From the NCBI GenBank assembly GCA_964458525.1, contig CAYWJE010000001.1:1-48520 (forward strand): DNA of 48,520 bases, given 5' to 3'. This document shows, piece after piece, positions 1,496 to 17,701 of the stretch (position 1 is its first letter; each line of letters begins with the position of its first letter). This stretch comes from an uncultured Verrucomicrobiota bacterium (lineage in GTDB: Bacteria; Verrucomicrobiota; Kiritimatiellia; JAAZAB01). The position numbers were made by a program, and so were the translations under genes. The notes under the pieces were generated by a model. It was not told where the DNA came from and ran no database searches. It saw only the letters and a list, made by a program, of their open reading frames with translations.

Positions 1496-3148
1496 ATGAA
1501 CAGCTGCGGTCATCTTCGGAGTGCGTTCGCGGCGACCGCGCTTTGCGCCTGCGCCCTGCTGTTGTCGCCGCCTCCCGCTCAATCCAATAATCTTCGAGTC
1601 ACGAACGTGACGGCGGTCGTGAACGATGAAAGCACCGTGCGCATCGCTTTCGACGTGTCCTGGGAGAATTCCTGGCGGGATACGGACATCAATCACGACG
1701 CCGCATGGGTGTTCTTCAAGGTCCGCGAGGACGGCAGCGAGGTGTGGCTGCACGGCGTGCTCGATGCCGACCAGGTTCTTAATCCCACCGGTTTCACTGT
1801 GGGTTCCGGCACGGAGTTGGATTTCATCGTGCCGGAGGACAAGGTCGGTATGTTCGTGCGGCGGAAGAACGAGGGCTCCGGCCTCGTCGCTTCGACAAAC
1901 GTCTCCGCGCTCTGGAACTTTTCCTCAAACGGGCTGGCCAAGACGGCGCGGGTGTTCGTGCAGGCGTTTGCCGTGGAGATGGTGTATGTCGCCGAGGGTC
2001 CTTTTTATCTCGGCTGCGGCGCCCCGACCAACAAGGAGGCGGCTTCTATAACCAACGTTCAAGGCTCGTTCACCGACGGCGCGTGGACAGCGGGAACTCC
2101 CACAAATTTTCCATACCTCGTGACCTCCGAAAACGCCATCACCATGGACAACAGTCCCGGCAATCTGTGGGGGACTTCTTCCAGCGGCGAGGACACCATA
2201 GGTCCCGTCGGTGTTCTCTCAAACGCCTTTCCGAAGGGATATGCCCCCTTCTACTGCATGAAATACGAAATTACACAGGGCCAGTATCGTGATTTTCTCA
2301 ATACGCTTACCCGTGAGCAGCAGAACAAGCGGACCCAGACCCAGCTACCCGACAGCTTCGTCATGAAGGCATACGAGAACAATGATTGGACCGTGATAGG
2401 CCAACGCGTTGGCATTCGCTGTCCTGCCGTGGTGCCCGACCCGCCCGGGGTGATAACATTCGGCTGCGACGCCAATGCGAACAGGATATTCAATGAGCCC
2501 GATGATGCCGAGAACCGGGCATGCGGCAATTTCGGGTGGGGGGATATCGCGGCCTATGCCGACTGGGCGGGACTGCGGCCCATGACTGAGCTTGAGTTCG
2601 AGAAAGCATGCAGGGGTCCGCTGTCCCCGGTCCCGTGCGAATTCGCGTGGGGCAGCACGAACATCGTGGTCCTCTCGAGCCAGAACAACGACGGCACGGG
2701 CTACGCCACTGTCAGCGCGCCGGCTGGGGCAAATTGCTATTATGACAACACCATGAGCGGGCCGAGGCGGGTGGGTCTTTACGCAACGGCGAGTTCATCG
2801 CGGGAGCAGTCGGGCGGATCTTATTGGGGGATCATGGAACTGACGGGGAACGTGAATGAACGCGTGATTTCGGTCTCCCAGACGGCAGGCCGGTCCTTCA
2901 CCGGTCTGCACGGCGATGGAACACTGGATGGTTATGGAGATGCGGATGTGTCGGCCTGGCCGGGCTCTACGGCCGCCGGGACAGGAATGCGCGGAGGGCG
3001 CTGGCATTATACGAAGACATACGGACTGCACACATCGAACAGAGGCGCCGCGAACAAGGTTCATCCGAACCGTTACTATTCGAATAATAATGGTTGCCTG
3101 CCCGGCGCGCGGCACGTCCGCACGGCGCCGGCCGGGATCGGACCGTAA
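1496..3148 (+). CDS. Secreted FGE/SUMF1-fold protein, type A, with an unrecognised N-terminal module
   Basis: The ATG at 1496 is in frame with ORF 1226..3148 and starts a signal peptide (MNSCGHLRSAFAATALCACALLLSPPPAQS|NNL). FGE-sulfatase-domain hallmarks: EMVYVAEGPFYLG, FYCMKYEITQGQYRDFL, WGDIAAYADWAGLRPMTELEFEKACRG, ELTGNVNERV, GMRGGRW. Closest paralog is 42103..43710. Confidence 0.8.
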   Translation: MNSCGHLRSAFAATALCACALLLSPPPAQSNNLRVTNVTAVVNDESTVRIAFDVSWENSWRDTDINHDAAWVFFKVREDGSEVWLHGVLDADQVLNPTGFTVGSGTELDFIVPEDKVGMFVRRKNEGSGLVASTNVSALWNFSSNGLAKTARVFVQAFAVEMVYVAEGPFYLGCGAPTNKEAASITNVQGSFTDGAWTAGTPTNFPYLVTSENAITMDNSPGNLWGTSSSGEDTIGPVGVLSNAFPKGYAPFYCMKYEITQGQYRDFLNTLTREQQNKRTQTQLPDSFVMKAYENNDWTVIGQRVGIRCPAVVPDPPGVITFGCDANANRIFNEPDDAENRACGNFGWGDIAAYADWAGLRPMTELEFEKACRGPLSPVPCEFAWGSTNIVVLSSQNNDGTGYATVSAPAGANCYYDNTMSGPRRVGLYATASSSREQSGGSYWGIMELTGNVNERVISVSQTAGRSFTGLHGDGTLDGYGDADVSAWPGSTAAGTGMRGGRWHYTKTYGLHTSNRGAANKVHPNRYYSNNNGCLPGARHVRTAPAGIGP

Positions 3149-3220
3149 CGAGGTTGTTGAAGCCGACAATGCCGGTTTCCGGATGAAAGGGGACGGGCGC
3201 GGAATGAGCCGCCCGACAGA

Positions 3221-4819
3221 ATGAAAATGAATTCTACAACACTGGTGCTTGTGTCGGCGCTCTGGCTCTGCGCCGGAGCGGCGCGCGCGAATAATCTCCA
3301 GATTACGAACGTGACGATTGGCGTGCAGAACGACACCTCGGCCCGCATTCGGTTCGACATTTCGTGGGACAATTCGTGGCGCTACACGAACATCAACCAT
3401 GACGCTGCATGGGTGTTTTTCAAGGTTCGCGAGGAGGGCGGGGAGACGTGGGAGCACGCTTATCTCCATGCCGACACGACGGTGAACCCGGGCGGCTTCT
3501 CGGCAGGCTCCGGCTCCGAGCTCGATTTCATCGTGCCGGAGGACAAGACCGGAGTGTTTCTGCGCCGGCGGCAGGAGGGCGCCGGCGCCGTCGCTTCGAC
3601 AAATGTCTCCGTGCTGTGGAATTTCTCATCCAACAGTTTCAACAAGACATCGAGGGTATTCGTTCGGGCGTTTGCCGTGGAGATGGCATACGTCGCCGAG
3701 GGCGCATTCTATCTGGGATCGGGCGGCCAGACCAATATGGAAACGGGCTCCTTCACCGACGGCGCGTGGACCAGCGGAACTCTCACGAGCATACCGTATC
3801 TCGTCACATCGGAGGACGCGATAACCATCGGCAACAATCCCGGCCAACTGTGGGGCACGTCTTCCAGCGGGGGCGGCACGATCGGCGGGGCGGGCGTTCT
3901 CCCCGCCGAGTTTCCGAAGGGATATGCCGCCTTCTACTGCATGAAGTATGAGATCACGCAGGCGCAGTACAGGGATTTTCTGAACACGCTCACACGCGAC
4001 CAGCAGATCGCGCGCACGGCAAGCCAGGAGCCCGATTATTTCGCCGTGTCCGGCAGAACCAATCTGTATTTCAAGTCGGGCATCAGGTGTCCCTCGGTCG
4101 TTCCCGCCCCGCCGGAGCCCATAGTCTTCGGGTGCGACGGCAATGTGAACGGCGTGTTCAACGAGGTTGACGATTCGATGGACAGGGCCTGTCCGTATAT
4201 TTCGTGGGCGGACCTGGCCGCTTATCTTGACTGGGCCGGTCTGCGGCCCATGACTGAAATGGAATATGAAAAGGCATGCCGCGGGCCTGTTGCGCCGGTC
4301 CCGGAAGAATACGCCTGGGGAAGCACGATCATATTCCTTTTGAGCGATGAAGCCGATGACGGAACGGGCTATTCCACGGTCGGTTCACCAGAGAACGCCA
4401 ATTCTTTTTATAGCATTGTGAATGGCGTCGGACCAACCCGTGTCGGAATTTTTGCGACGCCAACATCATCGCGTGAGAGGGCCGGCGCCGCCTATTGGGG
4501 AGTCATGGAGATGAGCGGCAACATCAGCGAGCGGGCGATAACCGCAGGCAACGCGACGGGGCGAGCCTACACGGGATTGCACGGCGACGGGAATCCGGGC
4601 GCGGACGGAAACGCGGACGTCGGCGGCTGGCCCGGCGCCGACGCTGTCGGCACCGGCTATAAAGGAGTGTACCAGCAATATGTTTATACGGCGCTCAGGG
4701 TGTCCAGCCGCCAGATGGCTGCCTTAACCTATTCTCTGCGGGGGCCAAGTTCGAACGACGCGGGGAGAAAGAACGGCGGGCGCGGAGTGCGCAACGCTCC
4801 CGCCGGTGTGGAGCGGTAG
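3221..4819 (+). CDS. Secreted FGE/SUMF1-fold protein, type B, with the same N-terminal module
   Basis: Signal peptide MKMNSTTLVLVSALWLCAGAARA|NNL. Motifs FDISWDNSWRYTNINHDAAWVFFKVR, EMAYVAEGAFYLG, FYCMKYEITQAQYRDFL, WADLAAYLDWAGLRPMTEMEYEKACRG, EMSGNISERA. Closest paralog is 40461..42092. Confidence 0.8.
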   Translation: MKMNSTTLVLVSALWLCAGAARANNLQITNVTIGVQNDTSARIRFDISWDNSWRYTNINHDAAWVFFKVREEGGETWEHAYLHADTTVNPGGFSAGSGSELDFIVPEDKTGVFLRRRQEGAGAVASTNVSVLWNFSSNSFNKTSRVFVRAFAVEMAYVAEGAFYLGSGGQTNMETGSFTDGAWTSGTLTSIPYLVTSEDAITIGNNPGQLWGTSSSGGGTIGGAGVLPAEFPKGYAAFYCMKYEITQAQYRDFLNTLTRDQQIARTASQEPDYFAVSGRTNLYFKSGIRCPSVVPAPPEPIVFGCDGNVNGVFNEVDDSMDRACPYISWADLAAYLDWAGLRPMTEMEYEKACRGPVAPVPEEYAWGSTIIFLLSDEADDGTGYSTVGSPENANSFYSIVNGVGPTRVGIFATPTSSRERAGAAYWGVMEMSGNISERAITAGNATGRAYTGLHGDGNPGADGNADVGGWPGADAVGTGYKGVYQQYVYTALRVSSRQMAALTYSLRGPSSNDAGRKNGGRGVRNAPAGVER

Positions 4820-4891
4820 AAAAAAGAGGTATAAGGGACTGCGGGGTTTCAGCCGGGCAGCCTGCGGTCAGCAGCTCGGGCACCCAGCCGG

Positions 4892-5596
4892 ATGCCGATG
4901 AAAGACAGAGCCATGAACATGCGATTAAGATTAATTATATCTCTATCGGTTGGCTTAGCCGCCGCATCAGCCTGGGCGGGAGCATGGAGCACCAACTTCG
5001 TCTGCTTCCGTGGAGGCTCCTACGACGGATGGGGCGAATGCGTCACGACCAATTCGATCGGATTGGGCGGCGGAGTGTTGACTCTCTCATCGGGGGCTGA
5101 TCAGTCGTTTGCCTGGTCAGACGCCGAAGCGGACCTCGCCGCGTTTACGATCACCGTTGTGGAGTCGGGTGTGCCGCCCGCGGTGACCAACGGAGGCGCA
5201 CTGCGAATAAGCGTGCCGTCAGGTTGGCAATGCCGTTTCAGCCCCGCCGTCACCGCGCCCGCGTTCGGCGGAAGCGCCGCCGGTAAGGTGAATTCCTCGG
5301 TATCCTATTCCGGGAACGGAGACAGTCTTATAGTGACAGCTGTATCCGCATTCGACGAGGGCGACATTCTCACGATAGACGGCTTGAAGCTCCTCGATAT
5401 GGCGTTGTGCTCGCCCGGTCCGAGGCGATTCGAGCTGGAGTTCACGGGAGACGGACAAAGGGACGCGTACGATCAATGTCTGACCTCGATAACAGTTTCA
5501 TGGCCCGGCGGATTCTACGACGGCTGGGACAGCTGCATGCCTGACGACCCCATGCACTTCTGGAAACCCAGGGGTGTCTTGATCATGTCCCAATAG
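4892..5596 (+). CDS. Small secreted protein S1 (unknown family), partner of the FGE-fold pair
   Basis: Signal peptide (MNMRLRLIISLSVGLAAASAWA). Paralog of 43791..44471. Shares SWSTNFVCFRGGSYDGW, VTAPAFGG.AAGKV, FTGDG.RDAYD, WPGG.YDGWD and the C-terminal FW.PRG tail. The start could be ATG 4892, 4898 or 4913. Confidence 0.7.
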   Translation: MPMKDRAMNMRLRLIISLSVGLAAASAWAGAWSTNFVCFRGGSYDGWGECVTTNSIGLGGGVLTLSSGADQSFAWSDAEADLAAFTITVVESGVPPAVTNGGALRISVPSGWQCRFSPAVTAPAFGGSAAGKVNSSVSYSGNGDSLIVTAVSAFDEGDILTIDGLKLLDMALCSPGPRRFELEFTGDGQRDAYDQCLTSITVSWPGGFYDGWDSCMPDDPMHFWKPRGVLIMSQ

Positions 5597-5695: not shown

Positions 5696-5741
5696 GCAGG
5701 CGTTTCTGTTCCGGCCAAATTAATTGATGAAGGAGTCAAAA

Positions 5742-8012
5742 ATGATGTCGCGAAAAATACTCTTTTCCATGGTGGCTTTCGTCTCTTTCACTTTTCTTGG
5801 CGCCGTCCGCGCATCAGAACTGCTGGTCGGCGCCGGCGAGGCGGACATAACGCCCGACAGGCCGGTGGCTCTCAGCGGGATGTTCCGTACCCGTATTTCA
5901 ACGGCGGTCGTTTCGCCGGTCACCGTCAATGTAATAGCCCTCGAATCGCGCGAGGACGGGAAGCCTGTGGATCAGGCCGTCCTCGTGTCCTGCGACCTGG
6001 TGGCCATTCGACCGGGCATTCTGGACGGGTTCCGCGAATACATGAAGGGGCGTCTGCCGGATCTCGACCTTGACAAAATAATACTTGCGGCGACACACAC
6101 ACACCAGGCGCCGGTGATGCTTCAAGAGCGCTTTCAATCCTATGGCGACGCCATGCAACCGAAGGAATATGTGCCGTTCCTTTACGAGCGCATGGGAGAA
6201 GCCGTCGAGAAGGCGTGGAAGAGCAGGGCGCCGGGCTCCGTGGCATGGGGATTGGGCCACGCCGAGGTAGCGGTCAGCCGCAGGCCGGTCTTCAAGGACG
6301 GTTCCGTCGGCGGCGGCAAGATGAGCGATCCCGATTTCAGCCACCTTGAGGCGGCATCGGATCATTCGGTGGGCGTTCTCTCCTTTTTCGACGCCAAGAC
6401 GAACCTGAAAGCCATTGCTATCAGCGTGCCCTGTCCCGCCCAGGCTTTTCAGAGCAGCCGATGCAGTCTGATAAGCGCCGATTTCTGGCATGATGTGCGT
6501 GAACTGCTCAAGAAAAGCTACGGGAAGGACCTCTGCGTGGCCGGCTTCGCGGCGCCCTGCGGCGACCAGGGGCCGGGCGCGCTCCGTTCCGGGAGCGAGG
6601 AGCGCATGGCTAAGCTTCGGGGCCTGCCGGAGGGCGGCGACTTTCCGTGGCTCCAGCATCTTCAGGGCTGGGAGCGGACCGACATGCTCGGCAAGCTCGC
6701 CCGCGCCCAGGAGATAGGACGCCGCGTCGCCAATGCCGTCGAGGATGTCCTGCCGGTCATGGCGAAGGATATCCGGACCGATCCTGCCTTCCTGCACACC
6801 GTTCACCGATTCGATCTGCGGAGCCTGGAGGTGAAAGAAGAGGATTTTGCCCGCATAACGGCGGCGCTCGAGCAGCTGGCCAAGAAGGACAAGCTGAGCG
6901 ACGCCGAATACACGCGAAAGGACTCTTATGAACGCGTGATAGAACGTTACGAGGCGCAGCAGCAGGGCAAGCCGCAGGTTTGCCCCGTGGAAATGCACAC
7001 GCTGCGCATAGGCGACATGGCCATCGGCACCACCCCGTTCGAGCTGTTCACCGATTACGGCACGCGCATCCACCTTGCGAGTCCAGCCGGACAGACGTTC
7101 CTGATGCAATTGGCCAACGCCACCAAGGACTTTCCCGATTACGGCGTCTATTTGCCCACGCGGCGAGCTGTCGAAGCTCGCGGCTACGACGGGTCCGTGG
7201 AATCCAACCTGATCGGCCCCGAGGGCGGGGACATCCTGGTGGAACGCACCGTCGCCGCGTTCAACGAGCTGTGGATGGCGCCGGGCGTTCTCGATGCTTT
7301 CAGGAAACAGAGCGAGGAGAAATTCATGCTCGCGGATAAGGCGGACCCTGCCGGCTGGTTCCAGGTTGATATCAAGCCGTTCTGCAACGTCAACCTGTAT
7401 TCCACGAACGGAGTCGTCGCGCCGGTCCAGTTCTACGCCATCGGGACCGGCCGCAGCGATTTCTACGGCGTGCCGACGGACATCATCGCGCCGGCCGACA
7501 ACGACAACCGCACGGCGATAGCCTTGACATCCAAGCGTTTTCAGCTGCCGGGCGCGAAGGATGTGAAACAACCCGCTCCCAGCGAAACCGCGCCGGCGAA
7601 AGACGCGGATGCGATCATCGGCAAGGCTGGAACCGATGTCACGGTCGGAAGGAAGGCCGATGCGCTGTTCTTCCTGTACGCTACCTACTACACGCTGCCC
7701 GAGGGCGAGCAGTATTTCCGGGTGAACTATGACGACGGCACGTCGCAAACCATACCATTTGTCGGCACGAAGCAGTCGGGCGACTGGTTCCATGTTGACA
7801 AGAGAGTCTACTCGGAAGATGTCCGCCACGTGCTGATCCCGCAGAAGGACCCGTGGCACAATCGTTCCTTCTACTGCATGCACATGATGCAGTGGAAGAA
7901 CCCGAATCCGGGCAAGGAAATCAAGTCCGTGACGCTCAAGTCGGACGAGCAGGCCGACATGGCGATATTCATCGCAGCCGTGACGGGATATGCCGGGAAA
8001 CAGACGAAATAG
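5742..8012 (+). CDS. Secreted neutral/alkaline-ceramidase-like hydrolase with a C-terminal beta-rich domain
   Basis: AAGGAG lies 6 nt before the ATG at 5742. Signal peptide MMSRKILFSMVAFVSFTFLGAVRA. N-terminal LLVGAGEADITPDRPV and ILAATHTHQAPV resemble the neutral ceramidase family GxxDITP and HTHxxP motifs. The ~230-aa C-terminal domain is unassigned. Confidence 0.6.
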   Translation: MMSRKILFSMVAFVSFTFLGAVRASELLVGAGEADITPDRPVALSGMFRTRISTAVVSPVTVNVIALESREDGKPVDQAVLVSCDLVAIRPGILDGFREYMKGRLPDLDLDKIILAATHTHQAPVMLQERFQSYGDAMQPKEYVPFLYERMGEAVEKAWKSRAPGSVAWGLGHAEVAVSRRPVFKDGSVGGGKMSDPDFSHLEAASDHSVGVLSFFDAKTNLKAIAISVPCPAQAFQSSRCSLISADFWHDVRELLKKSYGKDLCVAGFAAPCGDQGPGALRSGSEERMAKLRGLPEGGDFPWLQHLQGWERTDMLGKLARAQEIGRRVANAVEDVLPVMAKDIRTDPAFLHTVHRFDLRSLEVKEEDFARITAALEQLAKKDKLSDAEYTRKDSYERVIERYEAQQQGKPQVCPVEMHTLRIGDMAIGTTPFELFTDYGTRIHLASPAGQTFLMQLANATKDFPDYGVYLPTRRAVEARGYDGSVESNLIGPEGGDILVERTVAAFNELWMAPGVLDAFRKQSEEKFMLADKADPAGWFQVDIKPFCNVNLYSTNGVVAPVQFYAIGTGRSDFYGVPTDIIAPADNDNRTAIALTSKRFQLPGAKDVKQPAPSETAPAKDADAIIGKAGTDVTVGRKADALFFLYATYYTLPEGEQYFRVNYDDGTSQTIPFVGTKQSGDWFHVDKRVYSEDVRHVLIPQKDPWHNRSFYCMHMMQWKNPNPGKEIKSVTLKSDEQADMAIFIAAVTGYAGKQTK

Positions 8013-8013
8013 T

Positions 8014-8043
8014 GGTAGGGCGCGACCGCCGGGCGCGCCGTCC
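8014..8043 (+). repeat. REP-like GC hairpin element, copy A
   Basis: GGTAGGGCGCGACCGCCGGGCGCGCCGTCC, immediately after the stop at 8012. GGCGCG and CGCGCC form a 6-bp stem. Related copies at 15879..15910 and 44636..44663 (opposite strand). Confidence 0.5.
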
Positions 8044-8103
8044 GAAACCGCCTCCGCGCGCGAGCGGTGTTTCCGTCGGATAGAAACACGGATATCAGCG
8101 ACC

Positions 8104-9141
8104 ATGACAGCTCAACAAACAAACCTGAATCCGATCGTATTTCCCAAGGAAAAATGGCTTCGCGCGGACGCCGGGGCGTTCGGTTTTGACAGGGGAACGC
8201 TCGATCTCATCGCGGCGAAAATGCGGGAAGCCAAGGCCAATGGAGTATTGGTCCGCGACGGTCGCCTGGTAGCGGACTGGAATTTCGGAGGGCCGTCCGG
8301 CAAGCGGTTTGACATCCAATCCTGCACCAAGACGATCACATCCCTGGCGGTGGGACTCGCCATAGGCGACGGCCTCATTCCTTCCGTTGACACCCCCGTA
8401 AAGCAGTGCAGGCCCGATTTCGAGGCCGGGCCGTTCACGGATGAGATCACGTTTCGTCATTTGCTGACCATGACCGCGGGCATCGTTCAGACCATTCGCT
8501 ATGGCACAAGCCAGGATAAGAATCTGCCGACCGAATACGCGCGCCCCGGCACACGCTACAACTACCTCAATGACCAGTCAAAAGCGCTGGCCGGCGCGTT
8601 GACCTACATCTGCGGCCGCGAATTGAACGAGTTTATGAACGAGAAGCTCTCAGCGCTGGGCGCGGCCATGAAATGGGGATCGGAGCCGGAGTGGGATCCC
8701 GACGTGGTGACGGCCGACGGCAGACGAGTGCGCGCGAACTGCGGCTATTCCCGCGCTCATTTCTCGGCATCCGATCTCGCCCGGATAGGCCACCTCTACC
8801 TTCAGAAAGGAGCGTGGGACGGCAAAATTATCATCTCGCAGGATTTCGTCGCGCAAAGCCTGACGGCCAATCCGATTCCCTCGAGCGAGAGACGCGAGGT
8901 GGGCGAAGACGGGCTGATTCTCACGGGCGGGTATGGGTTCGCGTGGAGACAGCACGAATGCGAAGGCGTCATCACATGGGGCATGCATGGTTACGGCGAC
9001 CAGTTCTGCGTCATCATTCCGGAGCACAACGTGGTCATGACCAAACTGAGCGACTGGCGGGATAAGAGCACGTGGATCGGCAACGCGACCTTCTATCCCC
9101 TGTTGATACAATCCCTGAGAGGGTCCGGCGCCGGGAATTGA
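8104..9141 (+). CDS. Beta-lactamase-fold serine hydrolase (class C / PBP-like family)
   Basis: The ATG at 8104 is in frame with ORF 7990..9141. S-x-x-K motif in FDIQSCTKTITSLAVGLAI and a downstream Y-x-N candidate (TRYNYLN). No obvious signal peptide. Confidence 0.65.
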   Translation: MTAQQTNLNPIVFPKEKWLRADAGAFGFDRGTLDLIAAKMREAKANGVLVRDGRLVADWNFGGPSGKRFDIQSCTKTITSLAVGLAIGDGLIPSVDTPVKQCRPDFEAGPFTDEITFRHLLTMTAGIVQTIRYGTSQDKNLPTEYARPGTRYNYLNDQSKALAGALTYICGRELNEFMNEKLSALGAAMKWGSEPEWDPDVVTADGRRVRANCGYSRAHFSASDLARIGHLYLQKGAWDGKIIISQDFVAQSLTANPIPSSERREVGEDGLILTGGYGFAWRQHECEGVITWGMHGYGDQFCVIIPEHNVVMTKLSDWRDKSTWIGNATFYPLLIQSLRGSGAGN

Positions 9142-9152
9142 AGGAAAGGAAA

Positions 9153-11474
9153 ATGAGCATGAAGCGGAAATTGATGTTGAACTCGTGTTTTCCGGCATCC
9201 TGCCTCGCGGTTGCCGCCTGGCTGTGCCCCCTCTCCGCGCGCGGCGCCGAGCCGCCGATCCGGGTTGACGACATCAAGGGAGTCTACATCGAGGGCGCTC
9301 CGGGCGGCGTCGAGGCGGGAGCGCGTTCCGCGCTGATCAACGGCATGCGCGAGCTTTACGATGTTTCGCTCAAGGGGCTTGACGCCCTGCCGGAAGAGGG
9401 CGCCGTGATCATGCTCGGCGGTGAGGCGGCGGTGAAACACGGGCTGGCGAGCGAGAATGAGTTCCGGGAAATCACGCCCGGCGGTTACATCATCCGCATC
9501 CGCGGCAACAAGCTGGCGATTGCCGGCGCCAACCCGTACGCGACCGGCCATGGCGTCAACGACTTCCTCGAAAAGATCGGGAAGCGCGTTTACAGCGGGG
9601 GCGGCGGCGGAACCCGCAGTGTCATCCGCACGGACAAGCCGAAGACGCGCGACCTGCCCGCCATGGATATCAGCGCCAAGCCGGCTGTCCCTTACCGCAT
9701 ATACGTCTCGCGCCCCGAGTGGGCGGAGGCCGACAAGGCGCTCGATGCCTTGAATCCGGAACTGGCGGGAAAGACGGATTTGTGGGTGGATCATTCCGCC
9801 GGGTTCCTCGTGCCGAAGGATGTCTACTATGACAAGCATCCCGAATATTACGCCATGCAGGCGGACGGCAAGCGAATCCCCAAAAACGCCTTTTCATATC
9901 ACCGCACGGCGTTGTGTCTCTCCAATCCCGATGTCACCCGCATTTCGATCGAGCGGATGCTCAAATGGGTGGAGCTTCAACCCGACAAGATCTACTTCCC
10001 GGTGACATACGGAGACATAGGGCTCTGGTGTCAGTGCGAGAAATGCAAAGCGCTCGACCCCGCTCCCGGCGAGAATGCCGCGCGCCTGCTGACCTGGGTC
10101 AACGCCGTGGCCGGCGCGGTCGGCGAAAAACATCCGGACAAGATATTCATGACCTTCGCCTACGCCGGCTCGGACAAGGCGCCTGCCGGAATCAAGCCGG
10201 CAAAGAATGTTTGGGTGATCGCCTCCGTGGGCATGGGCGGCAATTCGTTTTTCGATCATTGCCTGGCGACCGGGCGGCTCAAGCGCGACATTGACAAGCT
10301 GGCCGGCTGGCTGAAAATCGTTCCCGGCCAGGTCGCCGTGTGCGAGTACTTGAGCGGAGTCTACATGCCGGCCCTGGTTGATTCGACCGCGGGCAGGATG
10401 CGATGGTACGCCGAAAACGGAGTCAGGGGGGTGATCTTCTCGTTCGGCAATCCGGTCGGGTTCCAGCCGTTGTGGAACTACGCCTATCCGCGCCTGATGT
10501 GGGATCCGAACCAGGACACGAAAGAGCTCGCCCGTGATTTCGCGCTCAACTATTACGGGCCGGCCGGCAAGGACATTGCCGACTATCTTGAGCTCGTTCA
10601 CGATCGCTATCACGAGACGCTGAAGATTCCTGTCGACATGCCCGGCAAGTTCTACAGCAAGGATTTCACCGAAAAGGCAATAGCAGCGCTCAAGAGAGCG
10701 CGGGATGCCGTGAAGGATGACCCGTCCGTTCACAAGGAAATAAGCGATGAAATGAAGATGTTCGTGCTGGACTGGATGGTCAACCCTGCATCGAAGGAGT
10801 TCGACGAAAACGCGAAGACCGATCTCGGACGCCAGCTCGACAGCCTGTTGGATCTGACGGAAACGAACGAAGCGGCAAGGATATCGTTCGGGCGCGAGGT
10901 GCACAGGACCGGCCTCGCCGCCGAGAGCTCGAGAAAGGGCGCGCTGGCAGTCGTCGAGTCGTGGCTGGAGGAGAAGAATCTTCCCAAGCCGAAGGGGATT
11001 CCCGTTCAAGGCGGAATCCAGCTTCCGGCGGAGGTCTTCATGTATGCCGGCTTCGGTCCTGCCCTGTATCACGGCGGCCACGTGGCTGCGCCTTGTCCGG
11101 AGAAGATGGCCGTTGCCGTGTACGTGAAGGGCAACTCCCAGAACCGCAGCCATCGCATGGTGGCGGAGTTCGAGCTCGACAAGATCGAGGGGGACGGCTC
11201 CGCGCGCCTCGATATCCACGGCCAGGACTGCGATCACGATGTTGACGTTGCTGAGATCGAGGCGCTCATGAACGGAACCTCGATATTCAAGGGGCCGGTC
11301 ACCATGGTGAAATGGAACTGGTCTCAGCAGAGCTTCGACATTCCGAAGGGCATTCTGAAAAAGGGACTCAACACGCTTGAGGTCAGGAACGCGGCAGATC
11401 CGGCCGGCGTCAAGAACTGGCATGACCGCTGGTTCATGCTGACCGATGCAACCGTCAAATTCACAGGTAATTAA
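9153..11474 (+). CDS. Secreted DUF4838-like protein (GH20-like-N/TIM-type glycan enzyme family) with a C-terminal CBM-like domain
   Basis: ATG at 9153 after GGAAAGGAAA. Signal peptide MSMKRKLMLNSCFPASCLAVAAWLCPLSARGA. Block HPEYYAMQADGKRI...LCLSNPDVTRISIERMLKWVE...WCQCEKCKALDP (C-x-C-x-x-C), which I recall as typical of DUF4838. Paralogs at 20145 and 21989. Confidence 0.6.
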   Translation: MSMKRKLMLNSCFPASCLAVAAWLCPLSARGAEPPIRVDDIKGVYIEGAPGGVEAGARSALINGMRELYDVSLKGLDALPEEGAVIMLGGEAAVKHGLASENEFREITPGGYIIRIRGNKLAIAGANPYATGHGVNDFLEKIGKRVYSGGGGGTRSVIRTDKPKTRDLPAMDISAKPAVPYRIYVSRPEWAEADKALDALNPELAGKTDLWVDHSAGFLVPKDVYYDKHPEYYAMQADGKRIPKNAFSYHRTALCLSNPDVTRISIERMLKWVELQPDKIYFPVTYGDIGLWCQCEKCKALDPAPGENAARLLTWVNAVAGAVGEKHPDKIFMTFAYAGSDKAPAGIKPAKNVWVIASVGMGGNSFFDHCLATGRLKRDIDKLAGWLKIVPGQVAVCEYLSGVYMPALVDSTAGRMRWYAENGVRGVIFSFGNPVGFQPLWNYAYPRLMWDPNQDTKELARDFALNYYGPAGKDIADYLELVHDRYHETLKIPVDMPGKFYSKDFTEKAIAALKRARDAVKDDPSVHKEISDEMKMFVLDWMVNPASKEFDENAKTDLGRQLDSLLDLTETNEAARISFGREVHRTGLAAESSRKGALAVVESWLEEKNLPKPKGIPVQGGIQLPAEVFMYAGFGPALYHGGHVAAPCPEKMAVAVYVKGNSQNRSHRMVAEFELDKIEGDGSARLDIHGQDCDHDVDVAEIEALMNGTSIFKGPVTMVKWNWSQQSFDIPKGILKKGLNTLEVRNAADPAGVKNWHDRWFMLTDATVKFTGN

Positions 11475-11514
11475 CCTCATCGTCGAAGAACTGCGAAGAA
11501 AAACAAGAAATGCA

Positions 11515-11538
11515 GACAGGATGACAGGATTATCCTGT
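11515..11538. repeat. Left bracket of the GxxExxY cassette: GACAGGAT GACAGGAT T ATCCTGT
   Basis: Two direct GACAGGAT octamers followed by the inverted copy ATCCTGT. It mirrors the right bracket at 11956..11995. Confidence 0.6.
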
Positions 11539-11566
11539 TGATCTTTGATCCAGAAAGCCAAGAGCC

Positions 11567-11941
11567 ATGGAATGCCGTGAGATTACGCAAAGGATAATCG
11601 GTTGTGCATATCGGGTATACAACACGATGGGCTTTGGCTTTCTGGAATCCGTGTATGAAAAATGCCTGCTGATTGAGTTGACGAAGGCTGGATTAGATGC
11701 AAAGACTCAGGTGTGCATTCCTGTGATGTATGACAATCAGAGTGTGGGTGATTTCACCGCGGCCTTGGTGGTCGAGGGGAAAGTAATAGTTGAGCTGAAG
11801 TCCGTTATGAGTCTTGCCAAGGCGCACGAGATTCAGTTGGTCAACTATCTAAGTGGCGACTGGAATCCCGGTGGGATTACTCATCAACTTCGGGGAGACG
11901 AAAGTGAAGTGAAACGAAAGGTTAGAAAGTTGACCAACTGA
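11567..11941 (+). CDS. GxxExxY family protein (PD-(D/E)XK fold), probably degenerate
   Basis: ITQRIIGCAYRVYNTMGFGFLESVYEKCL contains the eponymous G-F-L-E-S-V-Y motif. KVIVELKS is the E-x-K block. The C-terminal part is read out of frame over ~20 codons (see findings). Visibly lower GC than the neighbours. Confidence 0.7.
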   Translation: MECREITQRIIGCAYRVYNTMGFGFLESVYEKCLLIELTKAGLDAKTQVCIPVMYDNQSVGDFTAALVVEGKVIVELKSVMSLAKAHEIQLVNYLSGDWNPGGITHQLRGDESEVKRKVRKLTN

Positions 11942-11955
11942 ATCGGGGATGGATT

Positions 11956-11995
11956 GACAGGATTTCGATAAATCAAGTTATCCTGTTATCCTGTC
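11956..11995. repeat. Right bracket of the GxxExxY cassette: GACAGGAT-N16-ATCCTGT T ATCCTGTC
   Basis: One GACAGGAT followed by two inverted ATCCTGT copies. Its reverse complement reproduces the left-bracket arrangement. Confidence 0.6.
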
Positions 11996-12040
11996 CTTCT
12001 TTCTTGGGTTGCGGGTTCGCCCGCTTTGGGAGGATGGTAT

Positions 12041-13492
12041 ATGAAGAAGAAGCATCTCTACATCGCACTGGCCGCCATCGCGGCCGCAACGGCGGGGATA
12101 ACGGGGGGCAACGCCATGATGTGCAACTGCAACAGGGCATACGATTCCGCGATGCGCCGCGCGCGGGGCTGGCAGCTCGGCTGGTATCCCCTGTTCTCGC
12201 GGGTGCGCGAGGATCTCATGTTTCAGAAGGGGGACAAGATAGAGATATTCGCCTTCATTTTCAACCGGCCCATCGCCGGCTCCTGGAAGATCTGCCGCAA
12301 CGGGGTGAAAGAGCCGTTCATGAAGGATATGCCGATCGAGATCGGACCGGATCACTCGCTGCGAATGGTCGTTCCGGATGACAAGCTCACGCCGGGTTTC
12401 TACGACATCTATTTCACGGCAACAGCGACCGGCAAGTCCAATTTCACCGGCAGGGCGACCTTCGGCTATTGCGCGGATGAGATTCCCGCCGTTGATACCT
12501 GCCCGAAGGACCTGGCTGAGTTCTGGAAGAAGGCGGTGAAGAAGCTCGACAAGGTTCCGCCGAAAGCCGAGCGCGCGGCCGTGCGCGAGATGTCCGCAGA
12601 AGAGATTGACGCGTACAATATCACGGAGGCGTCCATTCCCGAGCGGTATGATCCGAAGGGCGTGAAGCACGATAAGATCAAGGTGTTCAAGATTCAGTTC
12701 GACGCCCCCTACGACAGCGCCGACGGCCGGCGCCGCTATCACGGCTGGCTCGCCATGCCGGCCGGCGAGGGGCCTTTCCCCGGCCTGCTCGTGCTGCCAG
12801 GCATGGGAAACGCATCCCTGCCCATCCCGGCCGAGCACGCCCGCCACGGCTACGCCGCGCTCATGCTCCAGATTCACGGATTGGAGGTTGATCTGCCCGA
12901 AGAGAAGTACACGCTTCCAAATGAAGCCGGCTACGGCGGACAAGGTCCGCGGAAGAAGGGGCTGGAAGACGACTATTACTATTTCGTCTACCAGGCCTGC
13001 GCGCAGGCGGTCCGCGTCCTCGCGGCCCAGCCGGAGGTTGACGGAAAACGGATAGGTGTGTGCGGCGGCTCGCAGGGCGCGCACCTGGCGGTGGCGACCG
13101 CGGCAATCGCGCCGGAAATCAAGGCTTCGGCGAACGTTCTCTGCCACTGGGCGAACTGGCCCATGCGTCTGCACATCGAGGAGCTCGACAAGGCCAAGGC
13201 GCATGGCCTTGACAAGCCCGTTCCGCCGTTCGACCGCAAGAACGAGCTTCACAACCACATGAGCTACTACGATCCGATGAACCTGGCGACGCTCGTCACT
13301 TCGCCCGCTCTGATGGGCCTGTGCCTGAACGACGCGCCAAGCCCGATCTCAACGGCGTACCCGGTCTTCAAGAACCTGGCGGCGAAGGAGAAGGAGCTGT
13401 TCCTGAGCGTGGGCACGGATCACGATCTCATGTTCATGATAGAGACGGAAGCCTTCAGGTGGATGGATAAGCATCTCGGCGCATCAAAGTAG
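12041..13492 (+). CDS. Acetyl xylan esterase / cephalosporin-C deacetylase-like (AXE1/CE7-type) alpha/beta hydrolase
   Basis: GGAGG before the ATG at 12041. Signal peptide MKKKHLYIALAAIAAATAG. Family-typical EFWKKAVKKLDKVP, FPGLLVLPGMG, and the nucleophile elbow GVCGGSQGAHLA (GxSQG). Confidence 0.7.
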   Translation: MKKKHLYIALAAIAAATAGITGGNAMMCNCNRAYDSAMRRARGWQLGWYPLFSRVREDLMFQKGDKIEIFAFIFNRPIAGSWKICRNGVKEPFMKDMPIEIGPDHSLRMVVPDDKLTPGFYDIYFTATATGKSNFTGRATFGYCADEIPAVDTCPKDLAEFWKKAVKKLDKVPPKAERAAVREMSAEEIDAYNITEASIPERYDPKGVKHDKIKVFKIQFDAPYDSADGRRRYHGWLAMPAGEGPFPGLLVLPGMGNASLPIPAEHARHGYAALMLQIHGLEVDLPEEKYTLPNEAGYGGQGPRKKGLEDDYYYFVYQACAQAVRVLAAQPEVDGKRIGVCGGSQGAHLAVATAAIAPEIKASANVLCHWANWPMRLHIEELDKAKAHGLDKPVPPFDRKNELHNHMSYYDPMNLATLVTSPALMGLCLNDAPSPISTAYPVFKNLAAKEKELFLSVGTDHDLMFMIETEAFRWMDKHLGASK

Positions 13493-13501
13493 GAATGACA
13501 T

Positions 13502-15802
13502 ATGAAAGCACACCTGCTCCGCGGAAACGCACGATTGCTGGCGCTCGCCGCCCTCATCGCGTTCTCCGGCCGCGCGCGAGCCGGCGATCCGGCGCCCCTG
13601 TTCGATGTTCCGCGCCTTGACGGCATCGAGATTGACGGCGCCGCCGCCGACTGGGGCGAGAGCGGGTTCCGCGTGGAAATGATCCAGGATCGCTCCGGCG
13701 AACACAAGCGGCCTGACGATATTGACGCGCGGTTCCGGCTAGGATGGGACAAGCGCGGCCTGCTCCTGCTGCTGCGCGCGCGCGATGACGCGCACATCGA
13801 GAGCGACGATGTCTGGTCCCTCTACGAAAACGATTCCGTGGAACTCTTCGCGGCCGTGAAACGCGGCTCGGACGATCTCTACCAGGTCCAGATCGGGCCG
13901 GGAATGGATGCGCGGCACGGCGAGCCCAGGCAGGCTCTCTCGGATTTGCGGAACAACCCGGAACTGAGGAAGCAGCCGCTCGTCTTCGTCGCCAAGCTCG
14001 CCAGGGACGGCGACAGCTACGCGCTTGAAGCGCTGCTCCCCTGGGAGAATCTCGGCATCGAGCCCGGCGACGGCGTGGAGCTCGCCTTCCAACTGGTGGT
14101 GAACGACAACGATGGAGACGGCCGGATCACCAGGCTGCAGTGGTTCCCCGGCTCGGGGACGGTCTCGGACAGCAGCGTGAGCCACCGCATCCGGCTGGCC
14201 AAGGCGCCGGGCCCGCCCGTGCTCGCCGCCGCATTGTTGTCGTACGAGGGGACGGACAAGCTGCGCGTCTTCATCGTGGCGGACGAGAAGCTGGACGGGA
14301 CGGAAGTCGGGATCGTGGGCGCCGACGGCGCCCGGCTGGCCGCTGTTCCCCTCAAGGCCAAAGGGGGCCGGGCCCGCGGCCAGGCGATACTGCCTTATCC
14401 GCTCCCGGAATCGGCAGGAAAACATCTACTGATGCTGGCCGACGGGAAACAGGTGGGAACGATTGACCAGCAGCTGATGCCGCCGCCGGCCCCGGCGAAA
14501 GGACAGAAGGACTTCGGCCGCGGCATGGCGAGGACGATGACGCTGCTGGCGACCAGCTCGCCCGAGAAACGCAACCGCGTCAAGATTCTCTTCTACGGCC
14601 ACCACATCACCGTCGGAGAATGGTGGAAAATTCTCGCCGCCTCCCTGCGCAATCGCTATCCCGACGCCGACCTCGTGGTTCACAATCTCACCGTCAGCCC
14701 CTATGGCTCGCCGCCGCGCATGGCGGTCCACAAGGTTTATCCCATGTATCCGGACCTCGTGATCCTCCATGTGATCTCCGGAACGGAGCCGGGCGGCGAG
14801 ATGGAGCGGCTTGTGGCCGACATCCGCCGCAGAACGACGTCCGAAATCATGCTCTGTTCGCATCTGCTGACGAACTGGAAAGCCGGCCAGGGCGACGACG
14901 CGAAGACGGATGATCACAAGGAGCGCGACAAATCGAGCGCGGAGATTGCCGCGCTGGCCGCGAAATACGATTGCGAGTTCGTGGATATACGCGGCGAATG
15001 GCGGCGCTACATGGACGACAACAACCTGAACTCCGAAGAATTGATGTACGGGGGACAGAACAACCTCAACACCCTCGGAAATGTGATCATGGAAATGATA
15101 TTTGCCCGGCATTTCCAGCACAACAGCGGGTTCCCCGTCAAGCTCGCGAATGCCGTGAGCGAGCAGCCCGTGAAGCCTGAAAAGGACGGCTCGATCAAGA
15201 TGGAGTTCCATGGGAACAGGATTGACCTCCTGCCCGGCGCCGTCGGAGCGGGAGAGAAGCGAGGCTCGGCTCGGATTCTGATTGACGGCAAGCCGCCGTC
15301 CGAAAACAGCCGGCTCTACGCCATATCGGTGCCCGGCAAGCCGCCTGTCGGCTTCTGGCCCGCGATCAAGCGGGTCTCGCACGAGAAACCCCTCGTGGTC
15401 GAGGACTGGACCCTGAGCGTAACCGACTCGACGGAACACGGCGGCGAGTTCCAGTTCGAAGTCGTCGGCTCGGTCACCGGCCCGGACGGAAGCGGGAACA
15501 ACAAGGAGAAATTCGTCTCCAAGTCCGGCCGCGCGATCATCGAGCCGGGCGATTGGGCCATGCTCGGCAATCTCGGCGCCATCCTGAAGGAGGGCCGGAA
15601 GATAGAGATATCATGGTCGGTCCTGCCGCAGTTCCTCGACGTCTACACTGCCCCTGACATCGAGCATCCGGCGCTTGACCATGCCGTGACCGTGGCGCAG
15701 GGGCTGGAGAACCGCAAGCACACGCTCGAAATCATCCCGAACGGGGATGGCGCCGTGCCCATCGAGGCGGTGCGGATATATCGCCCGCCCCTGGCAGAGT
15801 GA
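13502..15802 (+). CDS. Secreted CBM9-like domain + SGNH-like domain protein, catalytic motifs degenerate (putative pseudoenzyme)
   Basis: Signal peptide MKAHLLRGNARLLALAALIAFSGRARA. CBM9-like blocks: DGIEIDGAAADWGESGF, DSVELFAA, YQVQIGPG, ALLPWENLGIEPGDGVELAFQLVVNDNDGDG. The SGNH block I position reads ILFYGHHIT (no Ser). Paralog of 17723..20050. Confidence 0.7.
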   Translation: MKAHLLRGNARLLALAALIAFSGRARAGDPAPLFDVPRLDGIEIDGAAADWGESGFRVEMIQDRSGEHKRPDDIDARFRLGWDKRGLLLLLRARDDAHIESDDVWSLYENDSVELFAAVKRGSDDLYQVQIGPGMDARHGEPRQALSDLRNNPELRKQPLVFVAKLARDGDSYALEALLPWENLGIEPGDGVELAFQLVVNDNDGDGRITRLQWFPGSGTVSDSSVSHRIRLAKAPGPPVLAAALLSYEGTDKLRVFIVADEKLDGTEVGIVGADGARLAAVPLKAKGGRARGQAILPYPLPESAGKHLLMLADGKQVGTIDQQLMPPPAPAKGQKDFGRGMARTMTLLATSSPEKRNRVKILFYGHHITVGEWWKILAASLRNRYPDADLVVHNLTVSPYGSPPRMAVHKVYPMYPDLVILHVISGTEPGGEMERLVADIRRRTTSEIMLCSHLLTNWKAGQGDDAKTDDHKERDKSSAEIAALAAKYDCEFVDIRGEWRRYMDDNNLNSEELMYGGQNNLNTLGNVIMEMIFARHFQHNSGFPVKLANAVSEQPVKPEKDGSIKMEFHGNRIDLLPGAVGAGEKRGSARILIDGKPPSENSRLYAISVPGKPPVGFWPAIKRVSHEKPLVVEDWTLSVTDSTEHGGEFQFEVVGSVTGPDGSGNNKEKFVSKSGRAIIEPGDWAMLGNLGAILKEGRKIEISWSVLPQFLDVYTAPDIEHPALDHAVTVAQGLENRKHTLEIIPNGDGAVPIEAVRIYRPPLAE

Positions 15803-15878
15803 AGACAGGCGTTGCGAGCAAGTGAATAGGGCAACGAGATGGAAAGTCAGGAATGATCAGATGCTCATGGTGTGGCAA

Positions 15879-15910
15879 GGTAGGGCGCGACAGTCCTGGC
15901 GCGCCGTTCC
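15879..15910 (+). repeat. REP-like GC hairpin element, copy B
   Basis: GGTAGGGCGCGACAGTCCTGGCGCGCCGTTCC in the 225-bp gap after the stop at 15802. About 27 of 31 positions shared with copy A, with the same GGCGCG/CGCGCC stem. Confidence 0.5.
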
Positions 15911-16027
15911 TCCACGCTGGCCGGCCTGGCAGTCCGGCCGCACCTGGCGCTCCAGGATGCCCGGCTTTCGCATTTCGGGTCCATTTGGGGCATGCAGCAG
16001 TCACAAGGCGGCCTTAAGAATGCAAGG

Positions 16028-17701
16028 ATGAGTATGATGCGGCATAGGTGGGTTCAGAGAAGTCTTTTGAGATCAACCTTCATATCGTTGACGGCCATCG
16101 CGCTTGTTGCCTTGGCGGGTCAGGCGGCAGGCGAGGAGCAGCCGCTGAACCTGCTGGGCAATGCGTCGTGGGAGTTCAGCGTTGACGGCGGCGAATCCTT
16201 TTCAAGGGAGATCCCCGTTATCCCCGCCATGCCGTACAGGACCACGTACCCGATCACGGCTCGCGCGGTTTTCGAGGTGTCCGCCAAGGACGCCCCGGAC
16301 AAGAATGCCGCTCTTGAGTTATTCACCGGCATTCCGTACCTCTGGCGCCCCGAGTACGACCTGAACGGACACGGGTTCGCGCCGCCTCTCAAGGATCTGC
16401 TTCCAAACCTGCCCGTGGACCGGTCTTTCCTCGACGAGGGACGCAACACGCTCACCGCGACGTTCGCCGCCCGCAACGACAGGACCGGCTACACCGGCGA
16501 GAAGCGCGCCGCGGAACCGATCCGGCTGAGCATCGAAAAATGGTCGCTCCTGGTCCTGCCCCAGAAGGCGCCGGAAATACTTAACGGCCCGGTCATTGGC
16601 GCAGTCGGCGCGGGTTCGTTCAGGCTCGCCTGCCAGTTGACCAGGATCGCCGAAGTGCGGGTCTTCAACGCCGGCGGACGCGACAAGAATCCCGTCGCCG
16701 TTTCGCCCGCGGGCATATTCCACAACCTGAAAGTGCCGTTCGAGAAGCCGGGCGCGCCGATGCATTACAGGATCGTCGCGGGCGATGGGGACTACGCGTC
16801 GGAAATGGAAGGAAAGGTGACTCCCTTCAGCCTCGACATCAAGAATCCGCGGTTCGCGCTCTTCAGCGACAGCCAGATGAGCGAGAGCAGGCCGCAGGCA
16901 ACAGCCGGAAAGTTCAAGCTCGTGTGCGACGCCATCGTCAAGCAGAAGCCCGACCTGGTCGCGTCCTGCGGAGACCTGGTGTGCGGAGCTAACTATGACA
17001 CGCAGTGGTTCACTTTCTGGAACGAGCACTTCTTCGTGCCCGCGAGGGAAATGCTGGCCTCTTTTCCGTTCTACACGGTCCAGGGAAACCACGACTACGC
17101 GCCCATGGCCGGGAAGCTGTTCCCGACCCCGCCTCTGCCCTACAAGCTGGACGGCACTTACCTGATACCGAACTGGGCGCAGCGAATCGGGCCCATGCTG
17201 CTGATCGGGATCGAGGGCGGGCAGAACTGGTCCCCCGAGGCCTGTCACTATCAATGGCTCGAAGAGACCCTGGCCGGCGCCGGCGACGCCAAGTTCATTT
17301 TCCTCCTGAGCCATTATTCGCCCTGGACCTCCGGAAGCCACGGGAAGCTCGGTTCCGACGGAATGCCGGTCGAGGGGCCGATGCGACACGCGAAGGAATA
17401 CGTTCTCCCGCTGCTTCAGAAATACGGCGCCACGGCCATGATGGCCGGGCACGACCATTTCTACGAGCGCAGCGAACCGCCCGGCGGCGTGACCGTGATC
17501 ATGAGCGCCGGCGCGGGCGGGCGGTTGGCCGGGAAATACACGGATGCCGAAAAACAGAATCCCCATTCGAAAGTCCATTCGTCGGCGCTCAACTACAGCT
17601 TGTTCGAGGTCAACGGGGATGTCTGCAAGATGACGGCTTTCAACGTCGTCACCGGCGAACCCATAGACACCCGCGAGTGGAAAGCCAGGAGCGCCAAATA
17701 G
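16028..17701 (+). CDS. Secreted metallophosphoesterase (calcineurin-like / purple-acid-phosphatase-like architecture)
   Basis: Metallophos motifs: FALFSDSQ, SCGDLV, YTVQGNHDY, LLSHYSPW, GHDHFYER. Signal peptide MSMMRHRWVQRSLLRSTFISLTAIALVALAGQAAG from ATG 16028. The ORF track also allows 15992. Confidence 0.75.
   Translation: MSMMRHRWVQRSLLRSTFISLTAIALVALAGQAAGEEQPLNLLGNASWEFSVDGGESFSREIPVIPAMPYRTTYPITARAVFEVSAKDAPDKNAALELFTGIPYLWRPEYDLNGHGFAPPLKDLLPNLPVDRSFLDEGRNTLTATFAARNDRTGYTGEKRAAEPIRLSIEKWSLLVLPQKAPEILNGPVIGAVGAGSFRLACQLTRIAEVRVFNAGGRDKNPVAVSPAGIFHNLKVPFEKPGAPMHYRIVAGDGDYASEMEGKVTPFSLDIKNPRFALFSDSQMSESRPQATAGKFKLVCDAIVKQKPDLVASCGDLVCGANYDTQWFTFWNEHFFVPAREMLASFPFYTVQGNHDYAPMAGKLFPTPPLPYKLDGTYLIPNWAQRIGPMLLIGIEGGQNWSPEACHYQWLEETLAGAGDAKFIFLLSHYSPWTSGSHGKLGSDGMPVEGPMRHAKEYVLPLLQKYGATAMMAGHDHFYERSEPPGGVTVIMSAGAGGRLAGKYTDAEKQNPHSKVHSSALNYSLFEVNGDVCKMTAFNVVTGEPIDTREWKARSAK

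Follow-up and report, generated by a model that had tools for sequence, protein, structure and literature searches.

Putatively secreted, non-catalytic FGE-fold paralogs related to targets of diversity-generating retroelements, and their conserved small neighbour, encoded twice in an uncultured Kiritimatiellia bacterium

Introduction

Diversity-generating retroelements (DGRs) systematically have their variable regions (VRs) placed in C-type-lectin folds (PMC8144416). C-type-lectin domains of the FGE-sulfatase class (FGE, formylglycine-generating enzyme) are an established class of DGR targets, one survey placing about 19% of curated DGRs here and taking TvpA as exemplar (PMC5758913). Here we analyse a 48,520-nucleotide contig from an uncultured Kiritimatiellia bacterium (CAYWJE010000001.1, positions 1 to 48,520; hereafter the window), in which a compact cassette of two FGE-fold paralogs, A and B, and a small third gene, S, is present twice on the + strand, first in the order A-B-S and then in the order B-A-S.

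The A and B proteins belong to the C-type-lectin-fold family that DGRs diversify, a relationship missed by the original prediction, which had been made from the letters of this DNA alone. With confidence slightly above even, we read each cassette as encoding secreted, non-catalytic ligand-binding heads together with S as their adaptor, hard-wired in two specificities.

Two cassettes in one window

All six open reading frames (ORFs) proposed for the two cassettes were recovered at or very near the places originally assigned to them; A1 is carried by the sequencing run SRR11702755. Their packing is as tight as had been supposed (gaps of about 10 to 80 nt), with measured spacers of 72 and 72 nt in locus 1 and of 10 and 80 nt in locus 2. 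The genes and their relevant parts are as follows.

1496-3148, + strand: A1, predicted secreted FGE/C-type-lectin-fold protein of 550 aa (ORF and translation; PF03781, 41.8 bits), built of signal peptide, N-terminal beta-sandwich and FGE fold (AlphaFold pLDDT 90, pTM 0.91; Foldseek 6muj and 2q17, E ~1e-6)
1586-1990, + strand: A1 N-terminal beta-sandwich domain (aa 31-165; strands of the model at 34-165; no Pfam match)
2978-3130, + strand: A1 C-terminal tail (aa 495-545), homologous to the VR of DGR-targeted homologs and aligning with both VR and template repeat (TR) of the loci L005 and L019
3221-4819, + strand: B1, paralog of A1, 532 aa, with the architecture of A1 and a differing insert region and tail
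3290-3694, + strand: B1 N-terminal domain
4649-4801, + strand: B1 VR-equivalent tail (aa 477-527), with zero cysteines
4892-5596, + strand: S1, small putative secreted partner of 234 aa, with signal peptide, motif, beta-sandwich core, motif and C-terminal hydrophobic strand
5012-5032 and 5507-5527, + strand: S1 motifs GGSYDGW and GGFYDGW, respectively
40461-42092, + strand: B2, 543 aa, 77% identity to B1
40566-40970, + strand: B2 N-terminal domain
41922-42074, + strand: B2 VR-equivalent tail (aa 488-538)
42103-43710, + strand: A2, 535 aa, 76% identity to A1
42169-42573, + strand: A2 N-terminal domain
43540-43692, + strand: A2 VR-equivalent tail (aa 480-530)
43791-44471, + strand: S2, 226 aa, 53% identity to S1 (most likely start)
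43890-43910 and 44385-44405, + strand: S2 motifs, both GGSYDGW

The start of S2 was picked by homology to protein P0123, which is 71% identical to S2; the NCBI start lies at 43812, and the ORF opens at 43563. Protein identity is 76.4% for A1/A2, 77.0% for B1/B2, 58-60% for A versus B and 52.7% for S1/S2. The sequence blocks originally quoted for the two types exist and separate them within the window, with FVMKAYE..DWTVIGQR and GCLPGARHVRTAP characterizing A, and FKSGIRCPSV.. and SNDAGRKNGGRG.RNAP characterizing B. The N-termini of all six proteins are signal-peptide-like, in agreement with the secretion proposed for them. Each of the pairs A1/A2, B1/B2 and S1/S2 shows a ratio of nonsynonymous to synonymous divergence (dN/dS) of ~0.18-0.2, indicating that all six genes are functional and under purifying selection.

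Similarity between the two loci is limited to coding DNA, and their spacers and flanks share nothing. The sole non-coding similarity between the regions of the two loci is a 28-nt inverted match (93% identity) of positions 1427-1454, upstream of A1, to 38614-38587, about 1.8 kb upstream of locus 2. A promoter and terminator scan gave no convincing terminator within either cassette and a promoter-like site 3' of S1, the host being not sigma-70-typical and the scan consequently uninformative.

The S family and its linkage to FGE-like genes

Neither Pfam nor NCBIfam has a model that matches S1 or S2. In the literature, the motif, sought as GGSYDGW, YDGWD and GGxYDGW, turned up in no paper, and a broader search on FGE and the PVC (Planctomycetes-Verrucomicrobia-Chlamydiae) superphylum returned nothing relevant. 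S is a new family, undescribed in Pfam, NCBIfam and the searchable literature, and the view that the cassette is an undescribed architecture holds to that extent. An alignment of 33 small homologs gives the common layout: a signal peptide, F.GG.YDGW, a core of ~135 aa, GG.YDGW(D), about 10 variable residues and a terminal G-T-h-x-h-x-[R/Y/F] strand. Within the window, GGxYDGW is found in S1 and S2 only. In the AlphaFold model of S alone, the core (aa 60-200) reaches a pLDDT of ~95, and both motifs and the tail stay below 60 as disordered segments, as would be expected of segments that fold on a partner. For the core, Foldseek gave recurrent though weak cohesin-like and immunoglobulin (Ig)-like matches, the best being 2xdh (E 5e-4, TM 0.27/0.39).

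A profile search with S against 1.84 billion representatives recovered 655 clusters. Giant proteins (P0127-P0276; 1,400-4,100 aa) contain as many as 21 copies of the core module but not the GGxYDGW motif, and some of them show sub-threshold BppU_IgG-like Pfam similarity; they seem to make up a family of large repeat proteins, presumably at the surface, for which no model exists. In small S proteins, n core modules are usually accompanied by n+1 motifs, and the C-terminal strand is the same. Motif and strand also occur apart from the S core: in locus L015 a Big-like repeat protein (1-1899) has RF.GG.YDGWD at aa 252 and 604 and a GTIFVFK C-terminal strand, which makes motif and tail look like a portable element on different passengers. 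The next gene at that locus (1899-3155) encodes an S variant with fn3-like insertions.

S-bearing loci were pooled from exact-protein look-ups, a scan of species-representative genomes and a metagenome scan with a 10-sequence alignment, yielding about 26 loci after removal of duplicates, with both window loci and L019 counted. In about 21 of these 26 non-redundant loci an A/B-like gene (F) adjoins S on the same strand. As the original prediction had it, S is a real gene with a conserved place beside these genes, and not an ORF arisen by chance. Labelled hosts comprise Lentisphaerae, Victivallales, Kiritimatiellia, Verrucomicrobiota and Elusimicrobia. The remaining loci are mostly cut by contig ends, and L015 is clearly without an FGE-like gene. 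F usually precedes S, with S-F and F-S-F arrangements occurring at times; FGE-like copies number one (the commonest state), two or three per locus, and S is present once, twice or as a fused double. The adjacency of an FGE-like gene and S therefore recurs in the survey, whereas the A+B+S trio does not, and the proposal of a three-component unit gives way to a pairing of S with one to three FGE-like genes. In an all-versus-all comparison of ORFs from 14 loci, FGE-like genes and S were present in 12 and 13, respectively, and the next real family, an ABC-F type ATPase, in four.

That ATPase lies within 10 kb of the module in L003, L013, L016 and L018 (4/14 loci), which may be chance synteny. In L003, a 263-kb contig, the module (6236-20553; F', F, S, F) follows genes for an extracytoplasmic function (ECF) sigma factor and a FecR-like anti-sigma factor and precedes two proteins of ~1,100 aa with HZS_alpha beta-propeller domains, a layout that suggests regulated expression of a larger envelope cluster.

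The same survey bears on the possibility that no complex exists, and that A, B and S act independently and have stayed adjacent through tandem duplication and operon inertia. Such independence would fit the occurrence of FGE-like genes without S, copy numbers that vary freely (FGE-like 1-3, S 1-2) and an A/B split that arose by recent local duplication. It fits less well with an FGE-like/S adjacency that persists in five or more lineages whose proteins are 40-50% identical, is found in both F-S and S-F orders and survives the insertion of a whole DGR between the FGE-like gene and S in L019, or with the lack of any other real gene family as widely recurrent. We consider independent action unlikely.

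Relationship to targets of diversity-generating retroelements

A1 has over 5,800 protein matches at E <=1e-5. The best 120 of these are mostly full-length, with ~37-53% identity to A1 (the window's four proteins aside); the named hosts among these 120 are Omnitrophota, Elusimicrobia, Lentisphaerae and Kiritimatiellia, and several homologs share one contig. Two loci connect the family to DGRs through their repeat structure. In L005 (Candidatus Velamenicoccus archaeovorus), two homologs with 44-46% identity over nearly full length flank bAvd and an RVT_1 reverse transcriptase (RT), and a 132-nt TR (8419-8550) is copied as VR at the 3' ends of both; TR and VR mismatch at 17 of 38 TR adenines versus 1 of 94 other positions. 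The metagenomic contig L019 has, in order, a homolog with its VR (2309-2460), an RT (2510-4249), a TR (4308-4459) and S (4646-5311), with mismatches at 15 of 30 adenines versus 3 of 122 other positions. The DGR-target homologs of both loci are full-length and 44-47% identical to A/B (tblastn best matches, to B1).

The tails of A and B align with these repeats: the L019 template reads GFRGGNWNNANAYARVSDRNNAANVNANRNNNNGSRAVRSAP, A1 reads GMRGGRWHYTKTYGLHTSNRGAANKVHPNRYYSNNNGCLPGARHVRTAP and B1 reads GYKGVYQQYVYTALRVSSRQMAALTYSLRGPSSNDAGRKNGGRGVRNAP. Across 115 homologs the tail consists of a framework, GFRGG..RVSDR..R..G.R.VRTAP, with an entropy of 0.1-1 bit, interleaved with sites of 3.2-3.9 bits. 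A and B resemble DGR variable proteins in having a C-type-lectin/FGE fold and a VR-homologous C-terminus.

The 6.9-kb L019 contig carries a perfect 102-nt terminal direct repeat (1-102 and 6798-6899), which suggests either that the molecule is circular or that the assembly looped through a repeat. Two further genes of this contig encode an IS66-type N-terminal fragment (DUF6444, 126-734) and a DruA-like protein (5908-6810).

Given this homology, a DGR located elsewhere in the same genome might be acting on A and B from a distance, continually rewriting their tails. Besides the proven targets in L005 and L019, cellular DGR targets more than 100 kb from their RT are documented (PMC5758913). Moreover, several homologs that are linked to S but have no RT close by differ from the L019 TR with a bias to adenines: L007_F at 17 of 28 adenines versus 13 of 116 other positions, L008_F at 20 of 28 versus 18 of 116, and L018_F at 18 of 30 versus 18 of 121. 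By eye and uncounted, most A1/A2 tail differences also coincide with the Asn-coded, variable positions of the homologs' TRs. Against continual rewriting, the scanned proteins of the 48.5-kb window include no match to RVT_1 or bAvd, and no second, TR-like copy of any tail is found within it. None of the A1, A2, B1 and B2 tails has an adenine bias relative to the L019 or L005 TR (A1 differs at 10 of 30 adenines versus 45 of 121 other positions). The A1 and A2 tails differ by many synonymous changes that are not adenine-derived, and one current TR therefore cannot serve both. The B1 and B2 tails, 84% identical with a dN/dS of ~0.12, are conserved and not diversifying. The evidence favours fixed paralogs over active DGR targets in the window, and ongoing remote diversification strikes us as rather improbable.

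FGE fold without FGE catalysis

The FGE fold proposed for A and B is well supported. PF03781 (FGE-sulfatase) matches all four proteins at 36.7-44.5 bits over approximately residues 235-520, above the curated cutoff of 23.3. The first domain, like S1 and S2, has no Pfam match. The AlphaFold model of A1, built with 119 homologs (pLDDT 90, pTM 0.91), opens with an N-terminal helix, the signal peptide; residues 34-165 then form an all-beta sandwich, and the FGE fold follows. With this model Foldseek retrieved FGE structures (6muj, 2q17 and 1y1e, E ~1e-6), then the FGE paralog pFGE (1y4j, 1e-5) and, more weakly, EgtB and OvsA. It gave nothing meaningful among the viral structures of BFVD.

For the N-terminal sandwich of A1 there was no convincing Foldseek match, and a word-indexed search with the domain alone returned four short fragments only. 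The family conserves NNL.VTNVT, FD.SWENSWR and NHDAAWVFFK in this domain, with N31, F52, D53, W56, W60, R61, D68, A69, W71, F73, K75 and W84 near-invariant (entropy <=0.3 bits, 115 homologs).

Catalysis by FGE requires two copper-ligand cysteines in the C-terminal segment (C336 and C341 in the human enzyme). This pair is absent from A1, A2, B1 and B2. Beyond residue 353 in B1 and residue 365 in B2 there is no cysteine. A1 and A2 have one C-terminal cysteine each (534 and 519), within a six-residue insertion carried by about 5 of 115 homologs. A and B are therefore not FGEs in the catalytic sense, and proteins of this kind now labelled formylglycine-generating enzymes would be re-annotated as non-enzymes, even if the partnership with S were not physical. 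A phmmer search of the PDB with the C-terminal 111 residues of A1 gave chance cytochrome c matches only.

The cysteine result bears directly on whether A and B could be enzymes of the FGE/EgtB/PvdO superfamily that modify the GGxYDGW peptides of S. The fold is that of peptide-modifying oxidases, FGE itself binds a short linear motif, the S motifs resemble a substrate peptide in being highly conserved, duplicated and disordered, and the genes are tightly linked. Beyond the missing copper-binding pair, however, A and B have no DinB domain or iron-ligand signature, and NCBIfam models for EgtB, SenA and GldK score them at 11-22 bits against cutoffs of 350-420 (360-420 for EgtB and SenA). The equivalent of the FGE active site, a correspondence judged by motif (GG.W ... 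R.VR.AP) and not by residue-level alignment, is the most variable region of the family and is mutated by DGRs in homologs, which a conserved active site would not allow. Many family members also lack S. We regard such an enzymatic role as very unlikely; S as the substrate of an FGE-like enzyme was rejected as the leading interpretation because the would-be active site is hypervariable.

PorK/GldK and GldJ likewise have the FGE fold without its catalysis, and they function alongside a small partner. A GldJ/GldK/GldN-like envelope complex, as in the ring of type IX secretion and gliding, might thus seem an apt model, and the NCBIfam GldK model gives weak local matches, but it is highly improbable here: these matches reach 13.7-17.2 bits against a cutoff of 350 and cover ~40 residues, neither the window nor related loci yielded a homolog of GldL, GldM or GldN, the B2 signal peptide has no cysteine and so is not that of a lipoprotein, all four A/B proteins show an Ala/Ser-x-Ala/Ser | NNL cleavage-type site, and the phyla carrying A/B and S are not, to our knowledge, known to have type IX secretion.

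Origin of the A and B types

In a neighbour-joining tree of 36 family members, 100 of 100 bootstraps recover A1 with A2, B1 with B2 and the four proteins as a whole as monophyletic groups. The window's proteins being an exclusive clade, the idea that A and B are types conserved beyond the window fails; as judged from these sequences, A and B separated by a duplication within this lineage alone, rather than along a divide conserved in the family. Only in the C-terminal half do the types differ: over residues 286-550, proteins of one type share 76-85% identity and those of different types 31-61%. Identity between types is lowest in the tail (31-35%), against ~51% for the insert region and 57-61% for the FGE core. 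The N-terminal domains are equidistant among all four proteins (61-69% identity), without type signal. Synonymous divergence (dS) is 0.93 for A1/A2, 0.76 for B1/B2, ~2 for S1/S2 and ~1.55 for the N-terminal domains. These values point to an A/B history that is probably mosaic and old, possibly shaped by recombination, gene conversion or differing rates.

The swapped gene order had been taken as an argument against a simple segmental duplication. It says little in this respect, the duplication being old (dS 0.8-2) and the flank homology gone; no homologous flanks or breakpoints that would account for the swap were found between the loci. Conjecturally, the two orders could derive by differential loss from a three-head array such as that of L006 (F F F S).

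Proposed arrangement and its weight

In the arrangement we favour, A and B would be secreted heads in which an N-terminal beta-sandwich is followed by the FGE/C-type-lectin fold, with the last ~50 residues of the fold, the segment that DGRs mutate in close homologs, forming a hypervariable binding surface. Their specificity would reside in the insert and the tail. S would be their adaptor or anchor, keeping or displaying the lectin-fold heads at the cell envelope and presumably acting through its disordered GGxYDGW motifs and terminal strand. Diversity would be hard-wired: the private duplication would have produced head types A and B, differing mainly in their binding half, and a later duplication of the cassette would have produced four fixed specificities bracketing a 35-kb polysaccharide-degradation cluster, where the heads may capture glycans or other surface ligands.

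Several points weigh against this arrangement. S is missing from the neighbourhood of many family members (L005, L035, L036 and L037), which means that S is not obligatory for the fold and that the N-terminal domain they share is not an S-specific dock. The cohesin-like nature of the S core is weakly supported (E 5e-4 to 1e-2, TM 0.27-0.47). A DGR elsewhere in the genome, beyond the 48.5-kb contig, may act on the A/B genes. Genomes of the PVC superphylum are rich in carbohydrate-active enzymes, and the polysaccharide-cluster context may therefore be background. Finally, we infer rather than observe that S physically binds A/B, what kind of ligand the heads take and that they lie at the surface, the last from the signal-peptide-like N-termini alone.

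A broader and more tentative idea, which we consider possible but do not expect to hold, is that an FGE-like head with S constitutes an unrecognized, widespread two-protein surface-receptor platform of the PVC superphylum and Elusimicrobia. The motifs and strand of S would dock interchangeable heads, diversified by a DGR in L019 and by duplication in the window, and the motif would also be a docking tag on other passengers, such as the Big-repeat protein of L015. If so, S would be the first conserved structural partner for DGR variable proteins. Cellular DGR targets are abundant in uncultured bacteria, but little is known of their ligands and of how they are mounted on the cell; a partner conserved in five or more lineages offers a concrete handle on that question. 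The window itself presents the same scaffold after apparent loss, or in the absence, of the retroelement, with specificity fixed in paralogs, whose position beside polysaccharide-degradation genes points to plant or algal glycans as candidate ligands.

Genomic context

The ~35 kb between the cassettes (5724-40295) form a dense + strand block of carbohydrate-active genes, encoding PcRGLX-like lyases, DUF4838 proteins, CBM9 + GDSL esterases, an AXE1 esterase, a beta-helix protein and a fucosidase-like protein. Paralogy is common in the block, with three full or partial PcRGLX-like proteins (and one more at 29-1216), three DUF4838 proteins and two CBM9 + GDSL proteins. The large ORFs at 5724-8012, 28640-31360 and 46625-48466 have no Pfam match. 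After S2, a 149-aa ORF (44854-45303) matches only the C-terminal end of the Disaggr_assoc domain and could be a truncated or duplicated piece; in the beta-helix protein (33991-37071), the C-terminus likewise matches only that end of the domain.

Related loci lie near GH2, GH95 and apiosidase genes. Such surroundings offer a weak hint of glycan ligands for A and B. Directly 3' of S in L008 (6352-9258) is a gene for a 968-aa fusion of GH71 with a canonical FGE-sulfatase domain (E 2e-46), in which a lectin-fold domain is physically joined to a glycanase.

Comparison with known systems

The S core weakly matches several cohesins in Foldseek (2xdh, 4n2o, 2zf9, 2vo8 and 4iu2), and its repetition, up to 21-fold in giant proteins, recalls scaffoldins. 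Integrin and pilin Ig-like domains score similarly, no Pfam cohesin match was obtained and no dockerin-like partner was found. A cellulosome-like cohesin-dockerin system, considered separately, is unsupported because the GGxYDGW motif is absent from the window's enzymes.

Among FGE-fold proteins, the pair SUMF1 (FGE) and SUMF2 (pFGE) shares the fold with A and B and likewise consists of two coexisting paralogs, of which pFGE also lacks the catalytic cysteine pair. A and B are only 13-17% identical to these proteins, and have an extra N-terminal domain and a hypervariable tail in place of the active site. Unlike in the setting of a catalytic FGE, no sulfatase (PF00884) was found among the 20 neighbouring proteins scanned. 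PorK/GldK and GldJ differ from A and B, which fall far below the family cutoff, are not lipoproteins and come from different phyla. In EgtB, OvoA and SenA the N-terminal domain is DinB-like, whereas in A and B it is an all-beta sandwich.

The closest known kind is the TvpA-type DGR variable protein of Treponema denticola, among the category b targets of Wu et al. 2018 (PMC5758913). The differences lie in the diversification machinery and in the partners: the window has no RT, Avd or TR, and the diversity of A and B stems from gene duplication (into A and B, and twice over). The A/B family also has a conserved N-terminal beta-sandwich and the conserved neighbour S, which is unlike the four DGR accessory gene classes, avd, HRDC, MSL and CH1, described there (PMC5758913). 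What A and B have in common with TvpA-type proteins is the PF03781 domain, variable sites set between a GFRGG / RVSDR / R.VR.AP framework, loss of the catalytic cysteines and, as predicted for A and B, secretion.

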